Below, piece after piece: positions 2,275-33,449 of a stretch of DNA of 37,720 nt. The DNA is from Patescibacteria group bacterium (GTDB lineage: Bacteria > Patescibacteriota > Gracilibacteria > JAHISY01), in assembly GCA_043799575.1 (NCBI GenBank), contig JAZDNQ010000010.1, positions 1 to 37,720 of the forward strand. Reading direction: 5' to 3'. Below the pieces are notes generated by a model. It had not been told where the DNA came from. It saw only the letters and a list, made by a program, of their open reading frames with translations, and searched no databases. The position numbers and the translations under genes were made by a program. Within the stretch, counting starts at the first letter, position 1. The number at the start of each line of letters is the position of its first letter.

Positions 2275-2303
2275 GCCGAAAATTGCTTTTTCGGCTTTTT
2301 TTT
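2275..2303 (+). terminator. Intrinsic terminator
   Basis: GCCGAAAA-ttgct-TTTTCGGC followed by T8, just after the stop at 2254. Confidence 0.75.
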
Positions 2304-2311
2304 GGTAAAAT
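2283..2311 (+). promoter_or_regulatory. Sigma70 promoter of the pilin locus, overlapping the terminator
   Basis: TTGCTT-17 nt-TAAAAT with extended TG. Confidence 0.6.
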
Positions 2312-2334
2312 TACGAGATTTAAAAACTAAAAAT

Positions 2335-3717
2335 TTGGGGAAAATTAAAACCAAAATCAGCGAATTTTTCGGACGACATCTGCACAGTTTCCAGGAGATG
2401 CTTTTTGCCCTGACCTTGGTTTTTGTGATCGGTGGTTTTGTTTTTGCGAATCTCGGACAAGGCGGGGAGCAGCTGAAAGCTTTTTTGCGTTTCGACAATC
2501 AGCCGAGCGCAGAGCTGCTCGCGGCCGACGCGACTTTGACTTTGCCGACCAGCAACAACGCACCGACAAGCGTAGTTAAATTTTCGCCCGGCGACATTTC
2601 GCAGTGGGGATCGAACGACGCACTGGTCCAAAATCTTTTCAAAAAAACTCTGATTTTCAAACTTTTGACAGTCGCGAAATATATTTTGGGCGGGATTTTC
2701 ATGCTATTTCTCGGACTTTATGTGATTAATTTTTTGATGTCCGGCGACAAACCCGAAGCGCTGAAAAAATTCAGCGATCAAATGCTGTGGTCATTTGTCG
2801 GCTTTTTGATTCTCGCGCTCGCCGAACCGTTTTCGCAGGCATTCAGTTTGCTGCGCACCGGGCAGGTCAATCTTTTGACTAATCCAGCTGCAGCACTCGC
2901 CTCGGCGCAAATCGTCGGCTTCACTTATCGCTCGGCCGCGCATTTGATTGAATACATCGTCGGCGGTGTCGCGCTGCTCACGATGGCCGGTTCGATTTTC
3001 GAAATGGTGACTTCGGTCGGCGACGAGGAAGGCGTGAAAAATGCGCGTAAGTCGATGACCTGGAGCGCGGTTGCCTTGATTGTGGTTGGCGGCGCAGCTC
3101 TTTTCATTGATAATGTTTTTGCGCCAAGCGATGCGATCAGCAAAGAGCTTCAGGGTGGACTTGACCCAGCGATTCAATTAATGGATATTTTGCAGACCGG
3201 GCAATCGCGCGCACGGATTTTGATTTTGGATTATGTTAAATATTTTCAAACTTTTATTGGCGCAGCTTCTGTCCTGATGCTTTTTTTGGCTGGCTTCAAA
3301 ATGGTCTCGGCTGGAGGCGAGGAGGAGGTCATCAAAAAACAAAAGAAAATGATTACCTGGATTTTTATGGGTCTTTCTGTGATTTTAATTTCGGAAGCTT
3401 TTGTGAATATTTTTATGCCGGATGTCGGCGGCCAAATTAAATTCAGCGCAGCGACTGCGATCCGCAGTTTCTCGGCGCAGGTCGGTGGCTTCACAAATTT
3501 CCTTTTAACCTTTTCGGCAGCAATCGCCGTGCTCGCTTTGATCGTCGGCGCACTTTATATTTCGACCGCTTTCACGAATGCTGAACAAGCACAAAAAGGT
3601 AAAAAGATCTTGTTGGCTGCAGGTCTAGGCTTAGTCGTAATTATTTCGGCTTATGCCTTAGTCAATACTGTCCTCTCAAGCGGCGCGAGCGGCGCGAGTA
3701 TTTCTATTTCAAATTAA
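2335..3717 (+). CDS. Membrane protein with four tandem VirB2/TrbC-like (T4SS pilin-like) domains
   Basis: N-terminal TM then four hydrophobic hairpins joined by acidic-basic loops (SGDKPEALKKFSDQMLW, VGDEEGVKNARKSMTW, AGGEEEVIKKQKKMITW, TNAEQAQKGKKILL); start moved to TTG 2335 because 2302 lies inside the promoter (ATG 2398 is an alternative). Confidence 0.75.
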   Translation: MGKIKTKISEFFGRHLHSFQEMLFALTLVFVIGGFVFANLGQGGEQLKAFLRFDNQPSAELLAADATLTLPTSNNAPTSVVKFSPGDISQWGSNDALVQNLFKKTLIFKLLTVAKYILGGIFMLFLGLYVINFLMSGDKPEALKKFSDQMLWSFVGFLILALAEPFSQAFSLLRTGQVNLLTNPAAALASAQIVGFTYRSAAHLIEYIVGGVALLTMAGSIFEMVTSVGDEEGVKNARKSMTWSAVALIVVGGAALFIDNVFAPSDAISKELQGGLDPAIQLMDILQTGQSRARILILDYVKYFQTFIGAASVLMLFLAGFKMVSAGGEEEVIKKQKKMITWIFMGLSVILISEAFVNIFMPDVGGQIKFSAATAIRSFSAQVGGFTNFLLTFSAAIAVLALIVGALYISTAFTNAEQAQKGKKILLAAGLGLVVIISAYALVNTVLSSGASGASISISN

Positions 3718-3718
3718 A

Positions 3719-5191
3719 ATGCCAAAAAAACAAAACAAAACGCTTTTCACAATTCGCAAAATTCGCAATGCTAATCCGCGTTTCCCGCGAATTTATCGTT
3801 CGGTTCGCGAAAGAATTTGGCGCTTTGCGGTCATCCTTTTGCTGATTTCGGCTGGAGTCGCGAGTCTTTTCTTTTTCGAAAATAGTCTCGTTGTGAAAAA
3901 ATTTGAGTCAAATTTAATCGCGGCGGACACGAGCCAGATTCTCGGCAGCGGGTTTCAAACGATCGGCGGATTTACTGGAATTGCCACCAATCCCGGCTCG
4001 GACAAAAAAACTGGTGGCTTCACAGCCAGCGGGATTAAGACAATCAACGCACTGATCTACAACGTCAAAGATTATTTCAAATACATCGCAGGCGGAGTAG
4101 CCGTGCTTTACCTGATTATCGCCGCATTTCAAATCATCATGGCGCGCGACAACGAAGGTATCACCAAAGGCAAAAAGAACTTATTTTGGAGCGTCTTCGC
4201 ACTGGTTTTAGTTTTTGTGGTCGACATCATGGTAATTGCCTTTTACGAAGGCGGCGGAAGCGCGCCCGGCCAAAGTATTTTCGTGGTCAATCCGAACGGG
4301 ACGACTGTCGAAAATCTGACTTTGCTACAGAATATTTCGCTGTATTTCAAAATCAACGCCAAAACAATTTTTAGCTACATCAAAACTTTGGTCGGCGCAT
4401 TTTCAATTTTATTTATCGTTTTCGCTGGCGTACAAATGGTGACGGCAGGCGGGTCGGACGAGAAAATCGAAAAAGAGAAAAAATATTTGATGCACCTCGT
4501 GACTGCTTTTGTCACGATTTTGCTGCTTGATGTAATAATTTTCGGCGTGATTTATCCCGAGGCGATCGATGGCAGCAGCAATCCGGAATGCGCGGAATTT
4601 ATGACTGCGGTCGCAAAAGGCGGTAGTCTCATGGCCGCGCCAGCAGGTTGTCGCTCGGCAGCCGAACTCGGTTTGATCGCCTCAAATCAAATCTTTGGCG
4701 TTGTCCGCTTTTTCGAAACTTTGATCGGCGGCATCGCCATCTTTTTTATGGTTTATTCGGCAGTCGCGATCATCGCGTCGATGGGCGAGGACGACATCGT
4801 GAAGAAGCATCGCACAACTCTGATGTGGAGTCTTGCCGGACTCGTTTTAGTCCTGGTCGCGAATACTCTTATTACGCGATTTTTCTTCATCGTCGACCCG
4901 ACTACCGGAACATCCAGCGTCTCTACAATGACCGGCATTCAGATAATTGCGGGTGTGACAAACTTCATTGCGACTTTTGTCGGTATTTTGTCAGTCATTG
5001 CGATCATCGTAGCTGGCTTCATGTGGGTCGCAAATTTCGGCAGCGACGACGTAGCAGGCAAAGCTAAAAAGGTGATTTTGAGTGCGGTCATCGGCGTGAT
5101 TCTCTCGGTTTCGGCATATGCAATCGTAAACACCATCACAAATGCGAACTCGCATGGTGGAACAGGAACCAATATCGGAGTATCACTTTAA
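3719..5191 (+). CDS. Membrane protein with four tandem VirB2/TrbC-like pilin domains
   Basis: Loops RDNEGITKGKKNLFW, AGGSDEKIEKEKKYL, MGEDDIVKKHRTTLMW, FGSDDVAGKAKKVIL, each between two hydrophobic helices; basic N-terminal leader. Confidence 0.78.
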   Translation: MPKKQNKTLFTIRKIRNANPRFPRIYRSVRERIWRFAVILLLISAGVASLFFFENSLVVKKFESNLIAADTSQILGSGFQTIGGFTGIATNPGSDKKTGGFTASGIKTINALIYNVKDYFKYIAGGVAVLYLIIAAFQIIMARDNEGITKGKKNLFWSVFALVLVFVVDIMVIAFYEGGGSAPGQSIFVVNPNGTTVENLTLLQNISLYFKINAKTIFSYIKTLVGAFSILFIVFAGVQMVTAGGSDEKIEKEKKYLMHLVTAFVTILLLDVIIFGVIYPEAIDGSSNPECAEFMTAVAKGGSLMAAPAGCRSAAELGLIASNQIFGVVRFFETLIGGIAIFFMVYSAVAIIASMGEDDIVKKHRTTLMWSLAGLVLVLVANTLITRFFFIVDPTTGTSSVSTMTGIQIIAGVTNFIATFVGILSVIAIIVAGFMWVANFGSDDVAGKAKKVILSAVIGVILSVSAYAIVNTITNANSHGGTGTNIGVSL

Positions 5192-5212
5192 TATTTCGTC
5201 AAGGTAGCTTGT

Positions 5213-5241
5213 TTGATTGGTAAGCACAGAAATGCTAAAAT
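5213..5241 (+). promoter_or_regulatory. Near-consensus sigma70 promoter
   Basis: TTGATT-17 nt-TAAAAT with extended TG (TGCTAAAAT). Confidence 0.7.
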
Positions 5242-5289
5242 GGCCGGATTTAAAAACAAAAATTTAAATCAAAAATTAACCCCCATAAA

Positions 5290-5424
5290 ATGGCCAAAAC
5301 CAAAACGGTTCGCGCGACTGCAAAACGCGCACACTTCTCGGTTCGCGCGATCCGCAACGCGAATCCGCGCCAATTCCGCGCACACCGCGCGGGCAGCGTG
5401 CTCGCTCGCATCTTCTCGTTTTAA
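5290..5424 (+). CDS. 44-aa basic microprotein (not in ORF track)
   Basis: MAKTKTVRATAKRAHFSVRAIRNANPRQFRAHRAGSVLARIFSF*; A-rich leader before ATG, own promoter, shares a 12-aa motif with the neighbouring genes. Confidence 0.7.
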   Translation: MAKTKTVRATAKRAHFSVRAIRNANPRQFRAHRAGSVLARIFSF

Positions 5425-5457
5425 TTTTTAAAACGGGAGGACGGCTAATCAAGTCGT

Positions 5458-6795
5458 ATGCCTCCAAAAATCAAAAATAAAACTCGACGCTCGCGTCCGG
5501 CGGTGCGGTTCACCGTCCGCCGGATTGCCAATCGAAATCCGCGCAACGCCCGGAATTTTCGGCAGTTTCGCCAAAAATTGACCCGGCTGACGATGGGTTT
5601 GATCGCACTCGGCCTGATCGCGGGCAGTCTTTTTTTGCACGGCGGGCAGCTAAAAAGTGATGTCGTCGCTACGACTCAGCCTGACCAAGCTGAAACAACT
5701 GTGGTCGCTGCAGACACGACAGCTTCGACAGCTACGGCTGTCGCAAACACCAGCGCAACAACCGCACAAAATTCGGCTAGCATGAACGACAAAGTTTGCG
5801 CGGCCGATGATTTGATTAAAAATTTCGAAGATTTGACCACCCAGCTCGCGAATTTGTCGCGCGAGTTTCCAGATGTCATCGCAAATCTAGACTTTTGCGG
5901 GACAGGCAAATGCGCCGCGCAAGATTTGGTTTACAAAAATGAAAACAAAATTTGGCAAATCGAAAAAGATTTGACCAAGCTCGAGACGGACACCACTCGC
6001 GCTCAGACTGATTTCGCGACCAGTTTGGCGGAAAAAGAAAATGGAGTGTTCCTTTGCGAAAACGAGTCGCGCTGCACCGCAGCTGAGGCTGCGCTCGGCA
6101 AAGCTCGTGAATGCGAAAAAACATTTCAAAAGCTGAACCAACTTTTCACTATTCGTACGGACGTACAGGACAAATATTCGCTCGTGACCGCGAAAGGCAC
6201 GCGCGAATCGGCTGCAGTTTATGTGAAAAAATTGATGGAAGATATTTTCAAAAATCGCGATCGCGTCACCGAAAACACGAAATTTTACGAGCAATGCGTT
6301 GCCGCAAGCGATGCGAGCGTTTGCCAGAAATACGTGCAAAAAGTGAAAGAGGCGAACACGAATATCGCAAAATCAATTGAAGAGCTCGGCGGTCTGCAAG
6401 TCGACCTACAGGACAATCTAGACAAGGTCGAGGCTGACATAGTCGCGCTCGAAATCGGTCGTGGCGATGCACAAAATACGAAAGAAAACGAAGGTCTCGG
6501 CTGGTGCGACCAAAATTTGAAAAATACGAAAGCGGATCTTTTTACCAAGCTGACTGCCGCAGCGGGCGCGAAAACGACTTACGACAACGCGCTACAGCAC
6601 TTGGTCGACCTCAAAATTACTCTGAAGGCAAGCCTCCAATCCGAAACGGAAGAGGCGGCAATGCACGCGGCAGCGGAAAAACAAGCTGCCGAGGAAGCGG
6701 AGGCAATCGCGGCAGCGGAGAAAGCAGCCGCGGCAAAACGCGCACAAGCCGAAATGGTTTTCGGATTTTGGACAATAATCCGCAATGGATTTTAA
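5458..6795 (+). CDS. Membrane-anchored or exported helical/coiled-coil protein with paired cysteines, function unknown
   Basis: Basic leader plus TM, Thr/Ala linker, heptad-rich body with CGTGKC, CENESRC, CVAASDASVC, Ala/Glu/Lys helix, aromatic C-terminus. Confidence 0.75.
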   Translation: MPPKIKNKTRRSRPAVRFTVRRIANRNPRNARNFRQFRQKLTRLTMGLIALGLIAGSLFLHGGQLKSDVVATTQPDQAETTVVAADTTASTATAVANTSATTAQNSASMNDKVCAADDLIKNFEDLTTQLANLSREFPDVIANLDFCGTGKCAAQDLVYKNENKIWQIEKDLTKLETDTTRAQTDFATSLAEKENGVFLCENESRCTAAEAALGKARECEKTFQKLNQLFTIRTDVQDKYSLVTAKGTRESAAVYVKKLMEDIFKNRDRVTENTKFYEQCVAASDASVCQKYVQKVKEANTNIAKSIEELGGLQVDLQDNLDKVEADIVALEIGRGDAQNTKENEGLGWCDQNLKNTKADLFTKLTAAAGAKTTYDNALQHLVDLKITLKASLQSETEEAAMHAAAEKQAAEEAEAIAAAEKAAAAKRAQAEMVFGFWTIIRNGF

Positions 6796-6798
6796 AAA

Positions 6799-8775
6799 AT
6801 GAAATTTCTCCAAGAACTTCACGCCAACAAAAAATTGCAATTCGCACTTGTGATCGCGGTCGCAGTTGCGCTGATTTTCGGTGGCTCCCAAGTGCGCGGT
6901 CACGAATTGGGGAGCGACGTCACGCTTTCGACAGGTGCGCTCGTCGCGGTGCAAGCCGAGGCGGACAAAGTCAAAGCCGCGCGTGATGAATATTTCGCCG
7001 CAATCGGGAAAGGCGACGGTGGCATATACGATCAATATATCGAAGCCGCGAACTGCCCAGTGAATTTGAACACGCGACTGACCGCGCTCAAAAATTTGCG
7101 TAACGATTTGCAGCGTCTTTCCGGCGAAATCGTGATGCGCGAACGCGAAAACGGCTCGGAATTGCCGCGCGGGACAATCGAGCGTGAATTGAATGTGATT
7201 GAGTCGACGATCCGTCCGAATTTACTTTTGAATCAACTCGAGACATTCCAAAGTGAGCTCGACAAAATCGAGACCGCGGCCGCGGGCGATCCGAGCAGTT
7301 CGGCGCAGGCAGTCACCGCCAGCGTCGCGACGGTTCGCGACAATTTGGAAAAAATCGGTACGGCTGATTCGCTCGTCGAGCCACTGAAAACAATTGAAAG
7401 TAAATTACCGTATTTGTCGGAAGTAACGAAAGAAATCACTTCGACAAGCTTGAGCAACTTGAATTCAATTATTGCGAATAGCAATGCCAGTGCGGCAATT
7501 CGCCCGACTTTGGCAACGATTCGCCAATTGGCCAATAATAATGATCAGAGTGATTTGATTGAACCCGAGCTGCAAAAAATTGAAAATACCCTGCCTAACT
7601 TTGCGGCTGACCAACAGACTACTATTCAAAGTAGTATCGATACAATCCGCAAATTATTGAGTCGCAAAACTGCGGTCGAGGTACGACAAGCCGAGATTTC
7701 GAGTGTCAAAAATGAAATGCAGCAAATCGCCGACGCGGTTTTCAGTCAAACGGAAATCACTCAGTTTGAAAATCAAGAGGTTGGTTTGCGCAACGAATTT
7801 CAAACAACGACCGCAGCCTTGCAAAATTGTACAGCAAACAATGATGAACTCGAGCGCTGCGCGGTTGAATTGCAGGATTGGGTGCTTGCGAAAGAAAATT
7901 ACGAGCAATTTATCACCAACCTCGAAAACACCGCTTCGGCTCGCACGATTCAGGCGCAAAATAAACTCAAACCTCTGCAGGAAAAATTGAATGACCTGCA
8001 GTCTGAGGAAAATGATCAAAATTTCAGTCCGGAATTGGGCAGTGCGTCATTGCTCGGCATCGAAGCACGATATTTGAAAGCAGATGAGGTTGATTTGAGT
8101 GGTATGGATATGAGCGCTTTTGACAACTGGGATGAGGGTGTACGTACAGCCGGAGGAGGATCGGTCGATGCCAGCTCCGTCAGTAGCGGCGACTCTAGTT
8201 GGTCGTTTTCCGGAGCGATGAGCTCGCTCGCGAGTGGCGCTGCTAGTGTCGGCTCAGCAGTCGGCTCGGTACTTGGCGGAGTCGTCTCTGCTCCGCTCGC
8301 TGCAGTCAGCGGACTGATTGGCGGAGCAAGTAATGTTTTGTCGAGCGGAATCAGTGCAGTCGCGCGCGCGACCGGAATTGCCGGTATCGGCAGTCTGACT
8401 TCATCCGCAGTCGTCTTCGACGGACCTGGTGCACTCACCGGACTACAAACATTCAAACAAAGCTACAAAGGCAATTCTTATGGCAGCGCGATCGGCGTCA
8501 TCACTGGCTGGACGAATTTCGCTTTACCTTTCGTAGGCGTCATCGCGATCGCCGTACTCGTTTACGCTGGCTTCCTGTATCTCACCGCCGCAGGCAGCGA
8601 AGACCAAACCAAAAAAGCCAAAAATATTCTTATCTGGGTTGCGATCGGTATCATTATTATTTTCTCGGCCTACGCGATCGTCAATACTTTGCTCTCAACC
8701 AATAGCAGCAGCGGTGGCAGCGGCACAAGCGTCGGTGTGAATATTGGAGGAATTGGTTTTAATTACAGCAACTAA
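6799..8775 (+). CDS. Large helical protein with Gly/Ser/Ala-rich segment and C-terminal VirB2/TrbC-like pilin domain
   Basis: C-terminal WTNFALPFVGVIAIAVLVYAGFLYLTAAGSEDQTKKAKNILIWVAIG is a typical CPR pilin-like hairpin. Confidence 0.78.
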   Translation: MKFLQELHANKKLQFALVIAVAVALIFGGSQVRGHELGSDVTLSTGALVAVQAEADKVKAARDEYFAAIGKGDGGIYDQYIEAANCPVNLNTRLTALKNLRNDLQRLSGEIVMRERENGSELPRGTIERELNVIESTIRPNLLLNQLETFQSELDKIETAAAGDPSSSAQAVTASVATVRDNLEKIGTADSLVEPLKTIESKLPYLSEVTKEITSTSLSNLNSIIANSNASAAIRPTLATIRQLANNNDQSDLIEPELQKIENTLPNFAADQQTTIQSSIDTIRKLLSRKTAVEVRQAEISSVKNEMQQIADAVFSQTEITQFENQEVGLRNEFQTTTAALQNCTANNDELERCAVELQDWVLAKENYEQFITNLENTASARTIQAQNKLKPLQEKLNDLQSEENDQNFSPELGSASLLGIEARYLKADEVDLSGMDMSAFDNWDEGVRTAGGGSVDASSVSSGDSSWSFSGAMSSLASGAASVGSAVGSVLGGVVSAPLAAVSGLIGGASNVLSSGISAVARATGIAGIGSLTSSAVVFDGPGALTGLQTFKQSYKGNSYGSAIGVITGWTNFALPFVGVIAIAVLVYAGFLYLTAAGSEDQTKKAKNILIWVAIGIIIIFSAYAIVNTLLSTNSSSGGSGTSVGVNIGGIGFNYSN

Positions 8776-9299
8776 TGCTCACAAAAAAACTTCTTCGCGA
8801 CAAGAGAATGGTTCTCGGCATCATGCTCGGAGCGATCATTTTTTCGATCGCACTTTTTGGTCGAATGACTGGCAATTATTTAACCGCGGCAGTCGATTTG
8901 AATTTGGGCGGAGTGCTCGGCGGACTCGGAGTCGATGTCTCGACCGGTGGTTTCAATTTCAGCACAGGCGGCGGATCAGCCGTCCAACCGGGCTGCGGCG
9001 GCGGCAATTGCCTCGTCGTGCCCAACGCCGGAGTTTATTCTGGCATCGTAGGCGCAACCTCGATCCGTGACGCGATTATCAAATGGACGAATTTTTTTCT
9101 CGGATTTCTGACTCTAATCGCGATGATTATTCTGATTTACGCCGGCTTCATGTACATCACCGCAGCTGGAAGCGACGACCAAGCCAAAAAAGCCAAAAAT
9201 ACAATTATCTGGGTCGTGATTGGAATTATTATTATCATGCTCGCTTACGCCTTTGTGAATACTTTTATCACGACTGGCCCGACAGGCCGGGATTACTAA
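8775..9299 (+). CDS. Single-domain VirB2/TrbC-like pilin
   Basis: IYAGFMYITAAGSDDQAKKAKNTIIWVVIG; TAATG stop/start overlap with the upstream gene. Confidence 0.82.
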   Translation: MLTKKLLRDKRMVLGIMLGAIIFSIALFGRMTGNYLTAAVDLNLGGVLGGLGVDVSTGGFNFSTGGGSAVQPGCGGGNCLVVPNAGVYSGIVGATSIRDAIIKWTNFFLGFLTLIAMIILIYAGFMYITAAGSDDQAKKAKNTIIWVVIGIIIIMLAYAFVNTFITTGPTGRDY

Positions 9300-9309
9300 T
9301 CAAACCAAA

Positions 9310-11493
9310 ATGGAAAACCAAGATCTCTCCGATTTCGATGAAATTGCCGCTCCGGCTCATCCAGAGGAAACTCTCGCTGATCGTGTCGCCGCCGAAAAAC
9401 CGCAGCCAATGAATAAAAAACCGATCAACGGGAAAAAAATGGCGTGGGGCTGTCTCTTTCTGTTTTTGGCTGTTTTCTTCATTTTGCTGATCGCGATGGC
9501 GCTCGGATTGAACGCCAATGAAGATACAATATTGAGCCTCGGTCTCAATCCGGTCAGTCTCAAAAACTGGTCGATCGGAATGGTCAATTTCTTTTTCGGC
9601 GCGATCGCTCTGACCAGTTTAATCGTGATGATTTCGAGCCTGACGCGACGTCTGCTCGGCAAAAGAGAAGATGTTTTCGGTATGAACCGCGCGATGAAAA
9701 GAGTTTTTGTCAGTTTTGGAGTTTTCATCACAACAGTTTCAGTGTGGTTCTTGGTTTACGATTATTTCAGCCAGTTCGAAATGAAAGAACCCGAGCTGCC
9801 GATCGAGATCGTGACAAATCCAACGGAAACTTTGAATCTCACGTCTCCAGTACGAGTCGAATTTTCCGCGGAACGTATCACTCAAAAATTTCAGTCGGAT
9901 TACAAAATAATTAGCTATGAATGGGACAAAGAAAATGACGGAAGCATCGACGAAACCGGTCCAAAAACGACGATTTATTTTGTCGATGGCGGCAAAGACA
10001 ACGGTTTTTTTAACGTCAACCTGACAGTAAAAATTCAGCCAAAAACCGGCGGGCCGGTCGAGACGCGGAAATACGAAAAACAAGTTTCGATTTCGAATCA
10101 AAAAATCTACGGCGAAATCACGACTGATAAAGAATCGGGTGAAGCGCCTTTGATGGTGCGTTTCAACGCGAACGGAATCAAAGATCCGAGCGGCGCGAAA
10201 ATTACGAATTTCAGCTGGGATCTCGACGGCGACGGGCGCCCGGATCGCGACGGCGCGAGCTACGGCACGACCGAGTGGACTTTCGAAAAAATCGGCGAAC
10301 ACACTGTGACTTTGGTCGTGACTTCCGCGGATTACAATGACGACGGCACACACGAAACACAATCTTTCGAAAAAACGATCACTGTCCGTGAACCGGCCGG
10401 TGCAGTGAAATCGAATATTTGGATTGAAGCAACTCCGCAGCGCGGTTTTTCACCGCTCGCGGTCACGCTCATCGCGAAAAATGAATCACTCGACAAAGAT
10501 GCTCCACGCATCGACAAATACGAATGGCGCATCGGCGATGGAATGGCGACACTTTTTGGCCAGCGCACCAAATACACTTTCGACAAACCGGGCAATTATC
10601 CGGTTTCGTTGATTGTTACTTTCGCGAATGGACAAATGAGCAGTGCAACAGAAGAGATCGTGGTCAATGACCAAAGTTTTTCACCAACCGCAAAAATCAC
10701 CAGCGATCCGGCGATGAATAGTTCGAAAAAGGCGATCACTGGTCCAGCGCCTTTGACAGTCAAATTCGACGGAACAAAGTCAACCGACCCGGATGATAAT
10801 ATCGTGAAATACGATTGGGATTTCGACGGCGACGGATTTTGGGACGAAGAAGGCAGTACGATTTTGCACGAATTCCGGACAGCTGGTGAATACGAAACAG
10901 TTTTGCGCATCACTGATGCCGACGGCAATGAATCACGCGCGACGATCAAAGTCATCGCGGGAGAGGAAAACGCTATTATCAGCTTCGGCGCAGACAAACT
11001 TTCCGGTGCGGCGCCACTCACAGTCGATTTCGACGCTTCTGGCTCGCGTGTCCCGACTGGCAAAAAAATTATTTCGTACGAGTGGAATTTCGCAGCTGAC
11101 AAAGATCAAAACAAAACTTTCATTTACGATCGCGCGCAAACTTCGCATGTTTTCGAAACCGTCGGCGAGCATCTCGTGAAGCTAACTTTGCACGCGGACG
11201 ACGGCAGCGAATATTACGACACCCTAAAAATCGTGGCTTCGTACGCTTCGCTGCAGGCGAATTTCAATATGTCACGTAGTACTGGTCCGACTCCGCTCGC
11301 GATTTCTTTCGATGCGACTGCTTCAAGCGGCGAATTCACACGCGTCGCGTGGAATTTCGGCGACGGCACGACGAGTACCGAACAAAAACCGAGCCACATC
11401 TTCGAAAAATCCGGCAAGTATGAAGTCGTACTCAAGATTTACGACGCGTTTGGCAATATCTCGCAAACGAGTAAAACTGTAACTGCCAATTAA
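9310..11493 (+). CDS. PKD-domain surface protein (three N-terminal TM helices, six PKD/Ig repeats)
   Basis: Six GxxPLxVxF-like starts and W[DN]xxDG motifs (SWDLDGDG, DWDFDGDG, AWNFGDG). Confidence 0.88.
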   Translation: MENQDLSDFDEIAAPAHPEETLADRVAAEKPQPMNKKPINGKKMAWGCLFLFLAVFFILLIAMALGLNANEDTILSLGLNPVSLKNWSIGMVNFFFGAIALTSLIVMISSLTRRLLGKREDVFGMNRAMKRVFVSFGVFITTVSVWFLVYDYFSQFEMKEPELPIEIVTNPTETLNLTSPVRVEFSAERITQKFQSDYKIISYEWDKENDGSIDETGPKTTIYFVDGGKDNGFFNVNLTVKIQPKTGGPVETRKYEKQVSISNQKIYGEITTDKESGEAPLMVRFNANGIKDPSGAKITNFSWDLDGDGRPDRDGASYGTTEWTFEKIGEHTVTLVVTSADYNDDGTHETQSFEKTITVREPAGAVKSNIWIEATPQRGFSPLAVTLIAKNESLDKDAPRIDKYEWRIGDGMATLFGQRTKYTFDKPGNYPVSLIVTFANGQMSSATEEIVVNDQSFSPTAKITSDPAMNSSKKAITGPAPLTVKFDGTKSTDPDDNIVKYDWDFDGDGFWDEEGSTILHEFRTAGEYETVLRITDADGNESRATIKVIAGEENAIISFGADKLSGAAPLTVDFDASGSRVPTGKKIISYEWNFAADKDQNKTFIYDRAQTSHVFETVGEHLVKLTLHADDGSEYYDTLKIVASYASLQANFNMSRSTGPTPLAISFDATASSGEFTRVAWNFGDGTTSTEQKPSHIFEKSGKYEVVLKIYDAFGNISQTSKTVTAN

Positions 11494-13084: not shown

Positions 13085-13160
13085 TGGCAGGCCCAGAAGG
13101 ATTCGAACCCTCCCTTGCGGTTTTGGAGACCGCCGTGCTAACCACTGACACTATGGGCCT
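13085..13160 (-). tRNA. tRNA-Trp(CCA)
   Basis: Cloverleaf AGGCCCA...TGGGCCT-G-CCA, anticodon loop ctCCAaa, GTTCGAATC T-loop. Confidence 0.95.
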
Positions 13161-30104: not shown

Positions 30105-30181
30105 TGGTCGGGGTGAGAGGACTTGAACCTCCGACCTCACGCACCCCATGCGTGCGCGCTAGCCAACTGCGCCACACCCCG
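30105..30181 (-). tRNA. tRNA-Pro(GGG)
   Basis: CGGGGTG acceptor, anticodon arm CACGC-atGGGgt-GCGTG, encoded CCA. Confidence 0.95.
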
Positions 30182-31403: not shown

Positions 31404-31431
31404 CCAGCCGAAGCCCGAAGGCGAAGGCTGG
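31404..31431. repeat. Nested palindrome at the tRNA-Pro(CGG) 3' end
   Basis: ccagcc-gaa-gcc-cgaa-ggc-gaa-ggctgg, overlapping the encoded CCA. Confidence 0.7.
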
Positions 31432-31505
31432 TCGGGGTGAGAGGACTTGAACCTCCGACCTCGTCGACCCGAACGACGCGCGCTAGCCAACTGCGCTACA
31501 CCCCG
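31429..31505 (-). tRNA. tRNA-Pro(CGG)
   Basis: Anticodon arm CGTCG-ttCGGgt-CGACG, encoded CCA. Confidence 0.95.
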
Positions 31506-33372: not shown

Positions 33373-33449
33373 TGGCGTCCCCGGGATGATTCGAACATCC
33401 GACCTTTGCCTTAGAAGGGCACTGCTCTATCCAGCTGAGCTACGGGGAC
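33373..33449 (-). tRNA. tRNA-Arg(TCT)
   Basis: GTCCCCG acceptor, loop ctTCTaa, GTTCGAATC, encoded CCA. Confidence 0.93.

Follow-up and report, generated by a model that had tools for sequence, protein, structure and literature searches.

The small gene and its genomic setting

The window, by which we mean the whole 37,720-nucleotide stretch of DNA that was analysed, belongs to a Patescibacteria group assembly of 0.93 Mb in 72 contigs, and carries on its forward strand a pilin gene cluster in which a very short gene lies between two genes for membrane proteins:

2302-3717, forward strand: pilin-repeat protein, four T4SS_pilin (PF18895) repeats
3719-5191, forward strand: upstream gene, 490 aa; homologous basic tail (3719-3829), transmembrane (TM) helix, four T4SS_pilin (PF18895) repeats
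5290-5424, forward strand: small gene, 44 codons plus TAA, start ATG; very basic protein
5458-6795, forward strand: downstream gene, 445 aa; basic tail in codons 1-45 (5458-5592), one TM helix, long extracytoplasmic coiled-coil-like part; no known family
6799-8775 and 8775-9299, forward strand: proteins with a C-terminal pilin domain
9310-11493, forward strand: PKD-repeat protein

Ten of the genome's 18 PF18895 domain matches fall in this cluster, which is a VirB2-like pilin gene array such as those described in Patescibacteria (preprint 10.1101/2025.01.22.634366). In the available text of that preprint at least one VirB2-like pilin array is given as essential for epibiotic growth, and neither a tail-only small gene nor its motif is mentioned there, supplementary tables aside. 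A 367-aa protein with sigma-70 region 4 and HARE-HTH (1151-2254) is encoded directly upstream of the pilin cluster in all eight regions examined and is a candidate regulator of it. The window also holds four minus-strand tRNA genes, Trp-cca (13085-13160), Pro-ggg (30105-30181), Pro-cgg (31429-31505) and Arg-tct (33373-33449). Elsewhere in the assembly, well away from the pilin genes, lies an open frame of 774 aa with AAA_10 matches (contig C25:9258-10064) that is possibly a VirB4-like ATPase.

A sequence-only reading of this DNA had proposed an unannotated 44-aa microprotein at the locus. The peptide that it gave is the exact translation of the ORF at 5290-5424 on the forward strand, MAKTKTVRATAKRAHFSVRAIRNANPRQFRAHRAGSVLARIFSF, which contains 3 K, 8 R, 2 H and no D or E (net charge about +11). 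No hydrophobic stretch of TM length was found in it, so that the claimed absence of acidic residues and of a TM helix was borne out by composition and hydrophobicity. The word "unannotated" was only partly right, as three of the 12 database homologues described below are named "hypothetical protein" in public MAG records.

The 44-aa protein had no Pfam or NCBIfam match at E <= 0.1, no PHROG or PDB match, no usable match in the Protein Atlas and no signal peptide, and a scan of 15 members of its group against families at E <= 10 returned one chance match only. The profiles of T4SS_pilin (PF18895) and TrbC-VirB2 pilin, which do match the flanking proteins, did not match it. An L34-like ribosomal protein, suggested by length and charge, was rejected as its identity because profile PF00468 did not match it and the genome's own L34 gene lies on contig C60.

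Conservation and selection on the small ORF

A six-frame search of 61 genomes yielded full-length, stop-free matches in 12, namely the genome of the window and all 11 other family members searched (eight of the same genus and three from other genera), with E-values within the family of 5.8e-24 to 1.7e-8. No match better than E 0.03 was found in the 49 genomes outside the family; weak matches occurred in seven of these (E 0.03-0.32), and the three that were inspected (L013-L015) were chance similarities within other frames or genes. The small ORF has 43-56 codons in the 12 family loci and ends in ARIFS[FL]-stop. The same arrangement was present at 11 of 12 metagenome loci, the twelfth being a partial match on a 1.4-kb contig, and over these 23 loci (12 family, 11 metagenome) the ORF always lies between a pilin-repeat gene and a gene for a protein with the tail and a TM helix. 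The entire neighbourhood was syntenic in each of the eight regions examined. Public records that contain the gene are MAGs of Ca. Peribacteraceae, Ca. Peribacteria, Ca. Gracilibacteria or the Patescibacteria group.

In protein databases, a word-indexed search of 5.8 billion proteins returned 12 homologues of 43-60 aa, of which the two 60-aa proteins start further upstream, at an ATG that in the window is not in frame, and a profile scan of 1.84 billion representatives returned seven matches, six of them 47-74 aa long. The seventh, of 3237 aa, repeats a similar short string about 20 times and was taken as chance. The 78-2000-aa proteins of the 5.8-billion set gave no match to a longer homologue, and no fused or longer form of the gene was found in the relatives or the protein sets searched.

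The substitutions are those of a protein-coding gene. A dS could be defined for 55 of 66 pairs, and in these dN/dS was 0.037-0.393 (the remaining 11 pairs were saturated); pN/pS over the gap-free block of 29 codons was 0.15 in frame relative to 1.85 and 3.39 in the shifted frames. Over 43 codon columns, 19, 17 and 41 were variable at positions 1, 2 and 3, respectively; invariant residues are each encoded by two to four different synonymous codons, and indels comprise whole codons only. In a larger set of 18 distinct sequences, pN/pS was below 0.5 in 151 of 153 pairs. An antisense ORF of 53 codons (5250-5411, minus strand) is open in the window, but stops interrupt it in nine of 12 relatives, and it was rejected as a coding frame; it shares third positions with the small gene, to whose Arg and Ala codon composition its openness is due.

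These comparisons demonstrate, as far as sequences can, a genuine selected small gene at 5290-5424 that would have arisen before the sampled lineages split, and it is among the best-conserved genes of its cluster. The sequence-only reading had pointed to syntenic small ORFs and dN/dS in relatives as the check on its proposal, and to a longer gene or an absence of conservation in relatives as what would overturn it. All 12 family genomes carried the syntenic ORF under selection on the protein, 43-56 codons long everywhere, and the gene is therefore real, with (as described below) a conserved promoter of its own.

A tail module shared with the two neighbouring membrane proteins

About 35-40 residues of the small protein can be aligned with the N-terminus of each flanking membrane protein. 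The three modules have in common a Lys-rich start followed by the pattern F-[ST]-[IV]-R-x-I-x-N-x-N-P-R-x-x-R, and the suspected likeness of the small protein to both neighbours was upheld by hhalign, at 96.6% (E 6e-10) with the downstream tails and 94.4% (E 9e-8) with the upstream tails. The alignment also agrees with the earlier description of the peptide as essentially the motif alone, since it consists of the shared N-terminal module without any further domain. Its final residues, L-A-R-I-F-S-F, align with the juxtamembrane start of the paralogues' TM helix, and because they fall where that helix starts, the small protein is the tail alone, truncated at the membrane interface. These alignments show that the small protein is, by homology, a stand-alone paralogue of the basic cytoplasmic tail of about 40 residues that both neighbours carry.

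In a tree of the three kinds of module, built on few columns, a branch with 99/97 support sets the 23 small proteins apart as one group, which fits a single duplication long ago. The residues I21-R22-N23-A24-N25-P26 are invariant in all 23 small proteins, whereas both sets of tails vary at these positions; a second invariant block, I41-S43, is at the very C-terminus. The motif residues held in common with the tails are the most conserved positions of the small protein; conservation among the three paralogues does not extend to the paired arginines. The downstream tail is found in every family genome and adjoins the small gene at each locus. The upstream tail had no match to the module profile in three of the 12 family genomes (G003, G010 and G011), and in G010 and G011 the upstream gene begins without the motif. 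The short hydrophobic C-terminus of the downstream protein (6751-6795) closes with I-R-N-x-F in the window and in loci L003 and L012, a faint echo of the I-R-N of the tail motif that is probably a coincidence.

The sequence-only reading had treated the motif as a leader read generally by some machinery, and this part of it was not supported, as the motif was confined, among 301 genomes of the class, to three adjacent genes in one family. In its own genome the core pattern occurs in context in three ORFs, all at the locus, and is absent from the remaining pilin-domain ORFs. A 45-position module profile, searched against 301 genomes of the class, matched all 12 family genomes (three matches in nine of them and two in the other three) and gave three weak matches (E 9e-5 to 3e-3) in the other 289. 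In the loci that were read, the matches were the same three adjacent genes; in G001 and G004 the third match was on another contig. When the downstream tail was used as the query, the set of 5.8 billion proteins contained only five orthologues, of 411-445 aa, and no Pfam signal-motif family matched the tails. A motif limited to three ORFs of a genome is unlike a general N-terminal sorting signal of the Tat or YSIRK type.

Promoter, leader and initiation of translation

Upstream of the small ORF we distinguished the following elements:

5198-5203, forward strand: GTCAAG box, about 10 nt upstream of the -35 hexamer
5213-5241, forward strand: promoter; -35 TTGATT (5213-5218), 17-nt spacer, -10 TAAAAT (5236-5241), extended -10 TGCTAAAAT
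5242-5289, forward strand: A-rich leader without a Shine-Dalgarno (SD) sequence; conserved TTAACCCCC (5276-5284), 5 nt before the ATG
5247-5257, forward strand: GATTTAAAAAC, likely transcript start, conserved in the alignment

The TTGATT-17-TAAAAT promoter with extended TG and the A-rich leader were thus present where the sequence-only reading had placed them. The promoter scores 9/12 relative to the consensus of E. coli, and the region contained 14 promoter-like sites relative to 8.4 +/- 3.2 in shuffled sequences; chance yields many such sites here, and little can be concluded from the window by itself. In the relatives, TTGATT-N14-TGCTAnnAT was found upstream of the orthologous ORF at all 12 loci, starting 56-166 nt before the ATG. 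Full promoters of the same architecture occur at 41 sites in the 0.93-Mb genome, one of them before the first pilin-repeat gene, and the strict version lies within 120 nt of only 3 of 489 long ORFs. In an alignment of 12 loci the upstream box reads GTCAAG in eight and GTCAAT in two, the other two being unalignable within the 130-nt stretch, and GTCAA[GT]-N6-14-TTGATT occurs only three times in the genome.

The position of GATTTAAAAAC suggests that transcription would start near 5248. The same sequence follows the -10 box of several other promoters, including the 2317 site before the first pilin-repeat gene. There, the interval 2262-2340 contains a terminator-like hairpin and T-run 3' of the sigma-r4/HARE-HTH gene and then TGGTAAAAT and GATTTAAAAAC, a promoter layout like that before the small ORF. 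The listed start of the first pilin-repeat gene, TTG 2302, overlaps the -10 box, and the true start is therefore probably further downstream.

An SD-like motif at -16 to -4 precedes only eight of 490 long ORFs, and since the genome is nearly without SD sites, a missing SD before the small ORF is normal; the 3' end of the 16S rRNA nevertheless has CCTCC. In 69 of 489 long ORFs the ATG is preceded by a TA[AT]AAT box ending 6-10 nt ahead of it, a pattern which suggests that leaderless mRNAs are widespread in this genome. In the available text of PMC10783764, Ca. Peribacter riflensis is among the SD-scarce organisms.

A hairpin across the stop codon

The end of the small ORF and the spacer that follows it contain three further elements:

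5411-5441, forward strand: hairpin 1, 14 bp, pairing 5411-5424 (codons 41-44 plus TAA) with 5428-5441; loop 5425-5427
5435-5440, forward strand: SD-like GGGAGG in the 3' arm of hairpin 1, 17 nt before ATG 5458
5442-5456, forward strand: hairpin 2, 5-6 bp, occupying the gap between GGGAGG and ATG 5458

The local MFE of hairpin 1 is -18.6 kcal/mol, which is equalled by one of the 492 long-ORF stop regions of the genome (median -5.8). Its duplex z-score relative to shuffled downstream sequence was -5.0 in the window and -1.8 or lower in nine of 18 loci, the other nine being at chance level. Compensating changes were seen in L011, L045 and L046, which form the pairing with different sequences on both arms. 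Pairing was assessed by folding each sequence separately, because MAFFT left the 3' arms out of register; such folds lean towards structure, and a threshold of at least 8 pairs was reached by 210 of the 492 control stop regions, so that energy alone discriminates hairpin 1 from these controls. GGGAGG is under-represented in the genome (146 occurrences, with about 454 expected from length), and the GGGAGG-like tract lies 12-24 nt from the ATG across loci. Hairpin 2 is weak (-5 to -7 kcal/mol), and a small hairpin of different sequence occupies its place in L002, L004, L005 and L006.

In the window, a spacer of 33 nt separates the small ORF from the next gene. Of 19 loci, 17 could be scored, start assignment having failed in the other two; spacers were 33-41 nt in nine and 73-196 nt in seven, and that of L003 is 17 nt to an upstream in-frame ATG and 38 nt to the start conserved in its orthologues. 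None of the 17 spacers contained a -10-like element, and we infer from this that the small ORF and the next gene are co-transcribed. In L007, L009, L044, L046, L051 and L053 the spacers of 85-196 nt fold into hairpins of great stability (-24 to -57 kcal/mol) that lack U-tracts, and several of these consist of SD-like and anti-SD-like arms; they may be insertions of palindromes or elements that stabilise RNA.

The transcript is more stably folded than its shuffles (z -4.47). No Rfam match above chance was obtained, and RNAalifold gave no consensus structure over eight diverse loci (-9.0 kcal/mol, covariation term -0.28). A long-range pairing of TTAACCCCC with the post-stop GGGAGG..GGTTAA was also considered. 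It was rejected for the window, where its fold probability was about 0 and its duplex z-score -1.7; six other loci had duplex z-scores of -2.6 to -5.1, and the pairing had appreciable probability in only three of 12 full-transcript folds.

Hairpin 1 lends some concrete support to the suggestion, made in the sequence-only reading, that the small ORF could be a regulatory leader. The arrangement is one expected where unmasking couples translation of two genes, or where a leader peptide acts as a switch, although the distance to the ATG and the variable geometry make either role here uncertain.

Predicted structure of the small protein

An AF2 prediction from 23 sequences has helices at residues 5-24 and 26-42 with a kink at N25-P26 (mean pLDDT 66.7, pTM 0.25; the other four models score about 57), and is suggestive of a helix-kink-helix fold. 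Hydrophobic moments of 0.68-0.71 were obtained for windows that begin at residues 30-33, residues 30-43 being the region of the highest moment (about 0.70), and the helix at 26-42 is predicted at low confidence (pLDDT about 70). A shuffle test of amphipathicity on the last 11 residues only gave p 0.054, which makes the argument from an amphipathic tail, and with it the MinD-type membrane-targeting helix suggested in the sequence-only reading, a weak one.

Proposed role of the small protein

The reading that we prefer, to which we assign a probability of roughly 0.45, is that the small protein is a trans-acting, helix-kink-helix mimic of the tails, made together with the downstream protein. According to this model, the peptide of 44 residues and charge +11 would fold as two helices kinked at the invariant Asn-Pro, and would stay in the cytoplasm, probably against the membrane by way of its C-terminal hydrophobic face. 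There it would make the contacts that the tails make, either packing with the tail of the downstream protein or occupying the cytoplasmic partner of that tail. Ribosomes finishing the small ORF would melt hairpin 1 and bare the SD-like tract, and this melting would tie the output of the downstream protein to that of the small protein. This unmasking step is doubtful, given a tract 12-24 nt from the ATG, SD motifs at 8 of 490 ORFs and a hairpin that is insignificant in nine of 18 loci. A stoichiometric adaptor or subunit is favoured over a mere decoy, because the motif is stricter in the small protein than in the tails and the downstream gene is always present.

The first alternative is that the small ORF encodes a cis-acting leader peptide, whose nascent chain would pause the ribosome near the end of the ORF and so hold hairpin 1 open with the SD-like tract exposed. 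The downstream genes would then be translated only upon pausing, and a binder of the tail motif could modulate the pause and provide feedback. A first ORF followed by an SD-hiding hairpin is the classical layout of a cis-acting leader, so the constraint on the peptide could be exerted while it is still a nascent chain; this explanation is the strongest of the alternatives, though we consider it unlikely. The small ORF is the first of its transcript, with no -10-like element in any of the 17 spacers, and the spacer is of 33-41 nt in nine of 17 loci, to which L003 can be added when its 38 nt to the conserved start are counted. The stop-spanning hairpin with its GGGAGG 3' arm is of a stability equalled in one of 492 stop regions, and L011, L045 and L046 show compensating changes. 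Furthermore, the invariant blocks are at I41-S43 and 17-23 residues upstream of it (I21-P26), and blocks with such spacing in arrest peptides would lie near the peptidyl-transferase centre and the tunnel constriction. However, the geometry is not conserved, as seven of 17 loci have spacers of 73-196 nt, six of them with large unrelated hairpins, and the peptide is conserved in all 18 loci although the hairpin is insignificant in nine. The SD-like tract is too distant from the ATG in a genome where SD use is marginal, and RNAalifold found no consensus over the eight diverse loci. The last residue of the peptide is variable (F, L or D), with no terminal proline or glycine, and the conserved N-terminal K/R pattern, which would be outside the ribosome tunnel, is left unexplained by a leader of this kind.

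A related and still less probable possibility is a monitoring leader, in which the nascent tail motif, engaged by its reader or by the ribosome tunnel, would set the dwell of the ribosome on the stop-spanning hairpin and thereby the output of the downstream pilin cluster. If this were true, it would be feedback of the SecM/MifM type in which a cytoplasmic tail is sensed in place of a signal sequence, and it would operate in a lineage where initiation is otherwise leaderless and SD-free.

Roles other than a tail mimic or a leader peptide are, even when taken together, improbable. It is quite unlikely that the product is a general nucleic-acid- or ribosome-binding basic protein whose likeness to the tails reflects common descent and charge only. 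The net charge of about +11 without any acidic residue, and a full promoter from a class with few members in the genome, are what such a protein might have; but it matched nothing in Pfam, NCBIfam, PHROG or PDB, the genome's L34 is encoded elsewhere, the gene is fixed in the pilin cluster in 23 of 23 loci, and the residues held in common with the tails are the most conserved positions. More improbable again is a cationic peptide exported by the type IV-like apparatus or acting on a host cell, as might be imagined for a short, cationic and predicted amphipathic peptide encoded in a VirB2-like pilin cluster, in a genome with a 774-aa ORF that has AAA_10 matches. The peptide lacks a signal peptide, its homology to the cytoplasmic tails of membrane proteins argues for a role in the cytoplasm, and the AAA_10 ATPase, on a different contig, has no link to it. 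That the gene is a remnant of a 5' duplication in decay, or that it acts as RNA and not as protein, is close to excluded by the tests for protein-level selection, the frame intact at every locus and the lack of an Rfam match or consensus RNA structure, even though the gene is a truncated copy of the 5' end of a neighbouring gene and its transcript folds at z -4.47 relative to shuffles.

Significance and comparison with known systems

Small genes are routinely missed in the genomes of uncultivated bacteria, and this one sits inside a VirB2-like pilin array, a kind of cluster that is widespread in Patescibacteria. A free copy of the tail of two cluster proteins offers a concrete handle, as a search for what binds the 44-residue peptide should lead to the cluster's partner in the cytoplasm, and the stop-codon hairpin is a testable control point in an organism nearly without Shine-Dalgarno sites. 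The scope is narrow, being one family so far, known here from sequence analysis alone. A literature search found no paper on small proteins in CPR pilin arrays, and no printed peptide with the motif strings, the matches being "siRNANPR1" artefacts; the available text of the Peribacteria genome paper does not mention the gene.

In concept, the small protein would be nearest to eukaryotic microProteins and bacterial leader peptides, with which paralogy and position are the defining features that our analyses found in common. The microProteins (miPs) of plants and animals are small single-domain paralogues that act through a shared interaction domain. The gene described here likewise is a separate short gene that consists only of a module carried by larger proteins (hhalign 96.6% and 94.4%); unlike those, it is bacterial, its module is a cytoplasmic tail and not the dimerisation domain of a transcription factor, and it adjoins its "targets".

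SecM, MifM and VemP are regulatory nascent peptides encoded upstream of secretion or insertion genes, and those of the ermC type are leader peptides. The locus resembles these in having a small ORF directly upstream on one inferred transcript, an SD-like tract in a hairpin that overlaps the end of the ORF, and a small ORF that shares a feature with the proteins handled downstream. It differs from them in that the small protein has no signal sequence, TM helix or known arrest motif, the downstream gene is no known translocase, relatives differ in geometry and SD sites are scarce in the lineage.

Two further groups of proteins offer partial likenesses. MinD and FtsA have C-terminal amphipathic membrane-targeting helices, and the C-terminal 10-14 residues of the small protein, with a hydrophobic moment of about 0.7, are likewise predicted to be helical, whereas there is no folded domain to tether, and in the paralogues the homologous residues form the beginning of the TM helix. 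KdpF, CydX and AcrZ are small single-TM accessory peptides encoded in the operons of membrane complexes. Like them, the small protein has fewer than 50 residues, is conserved and is encoded with the membrane proteins that it presumably serves; in contrast to them, it lacks a TM helix and is related by paralogy to the tails of its neighbours.
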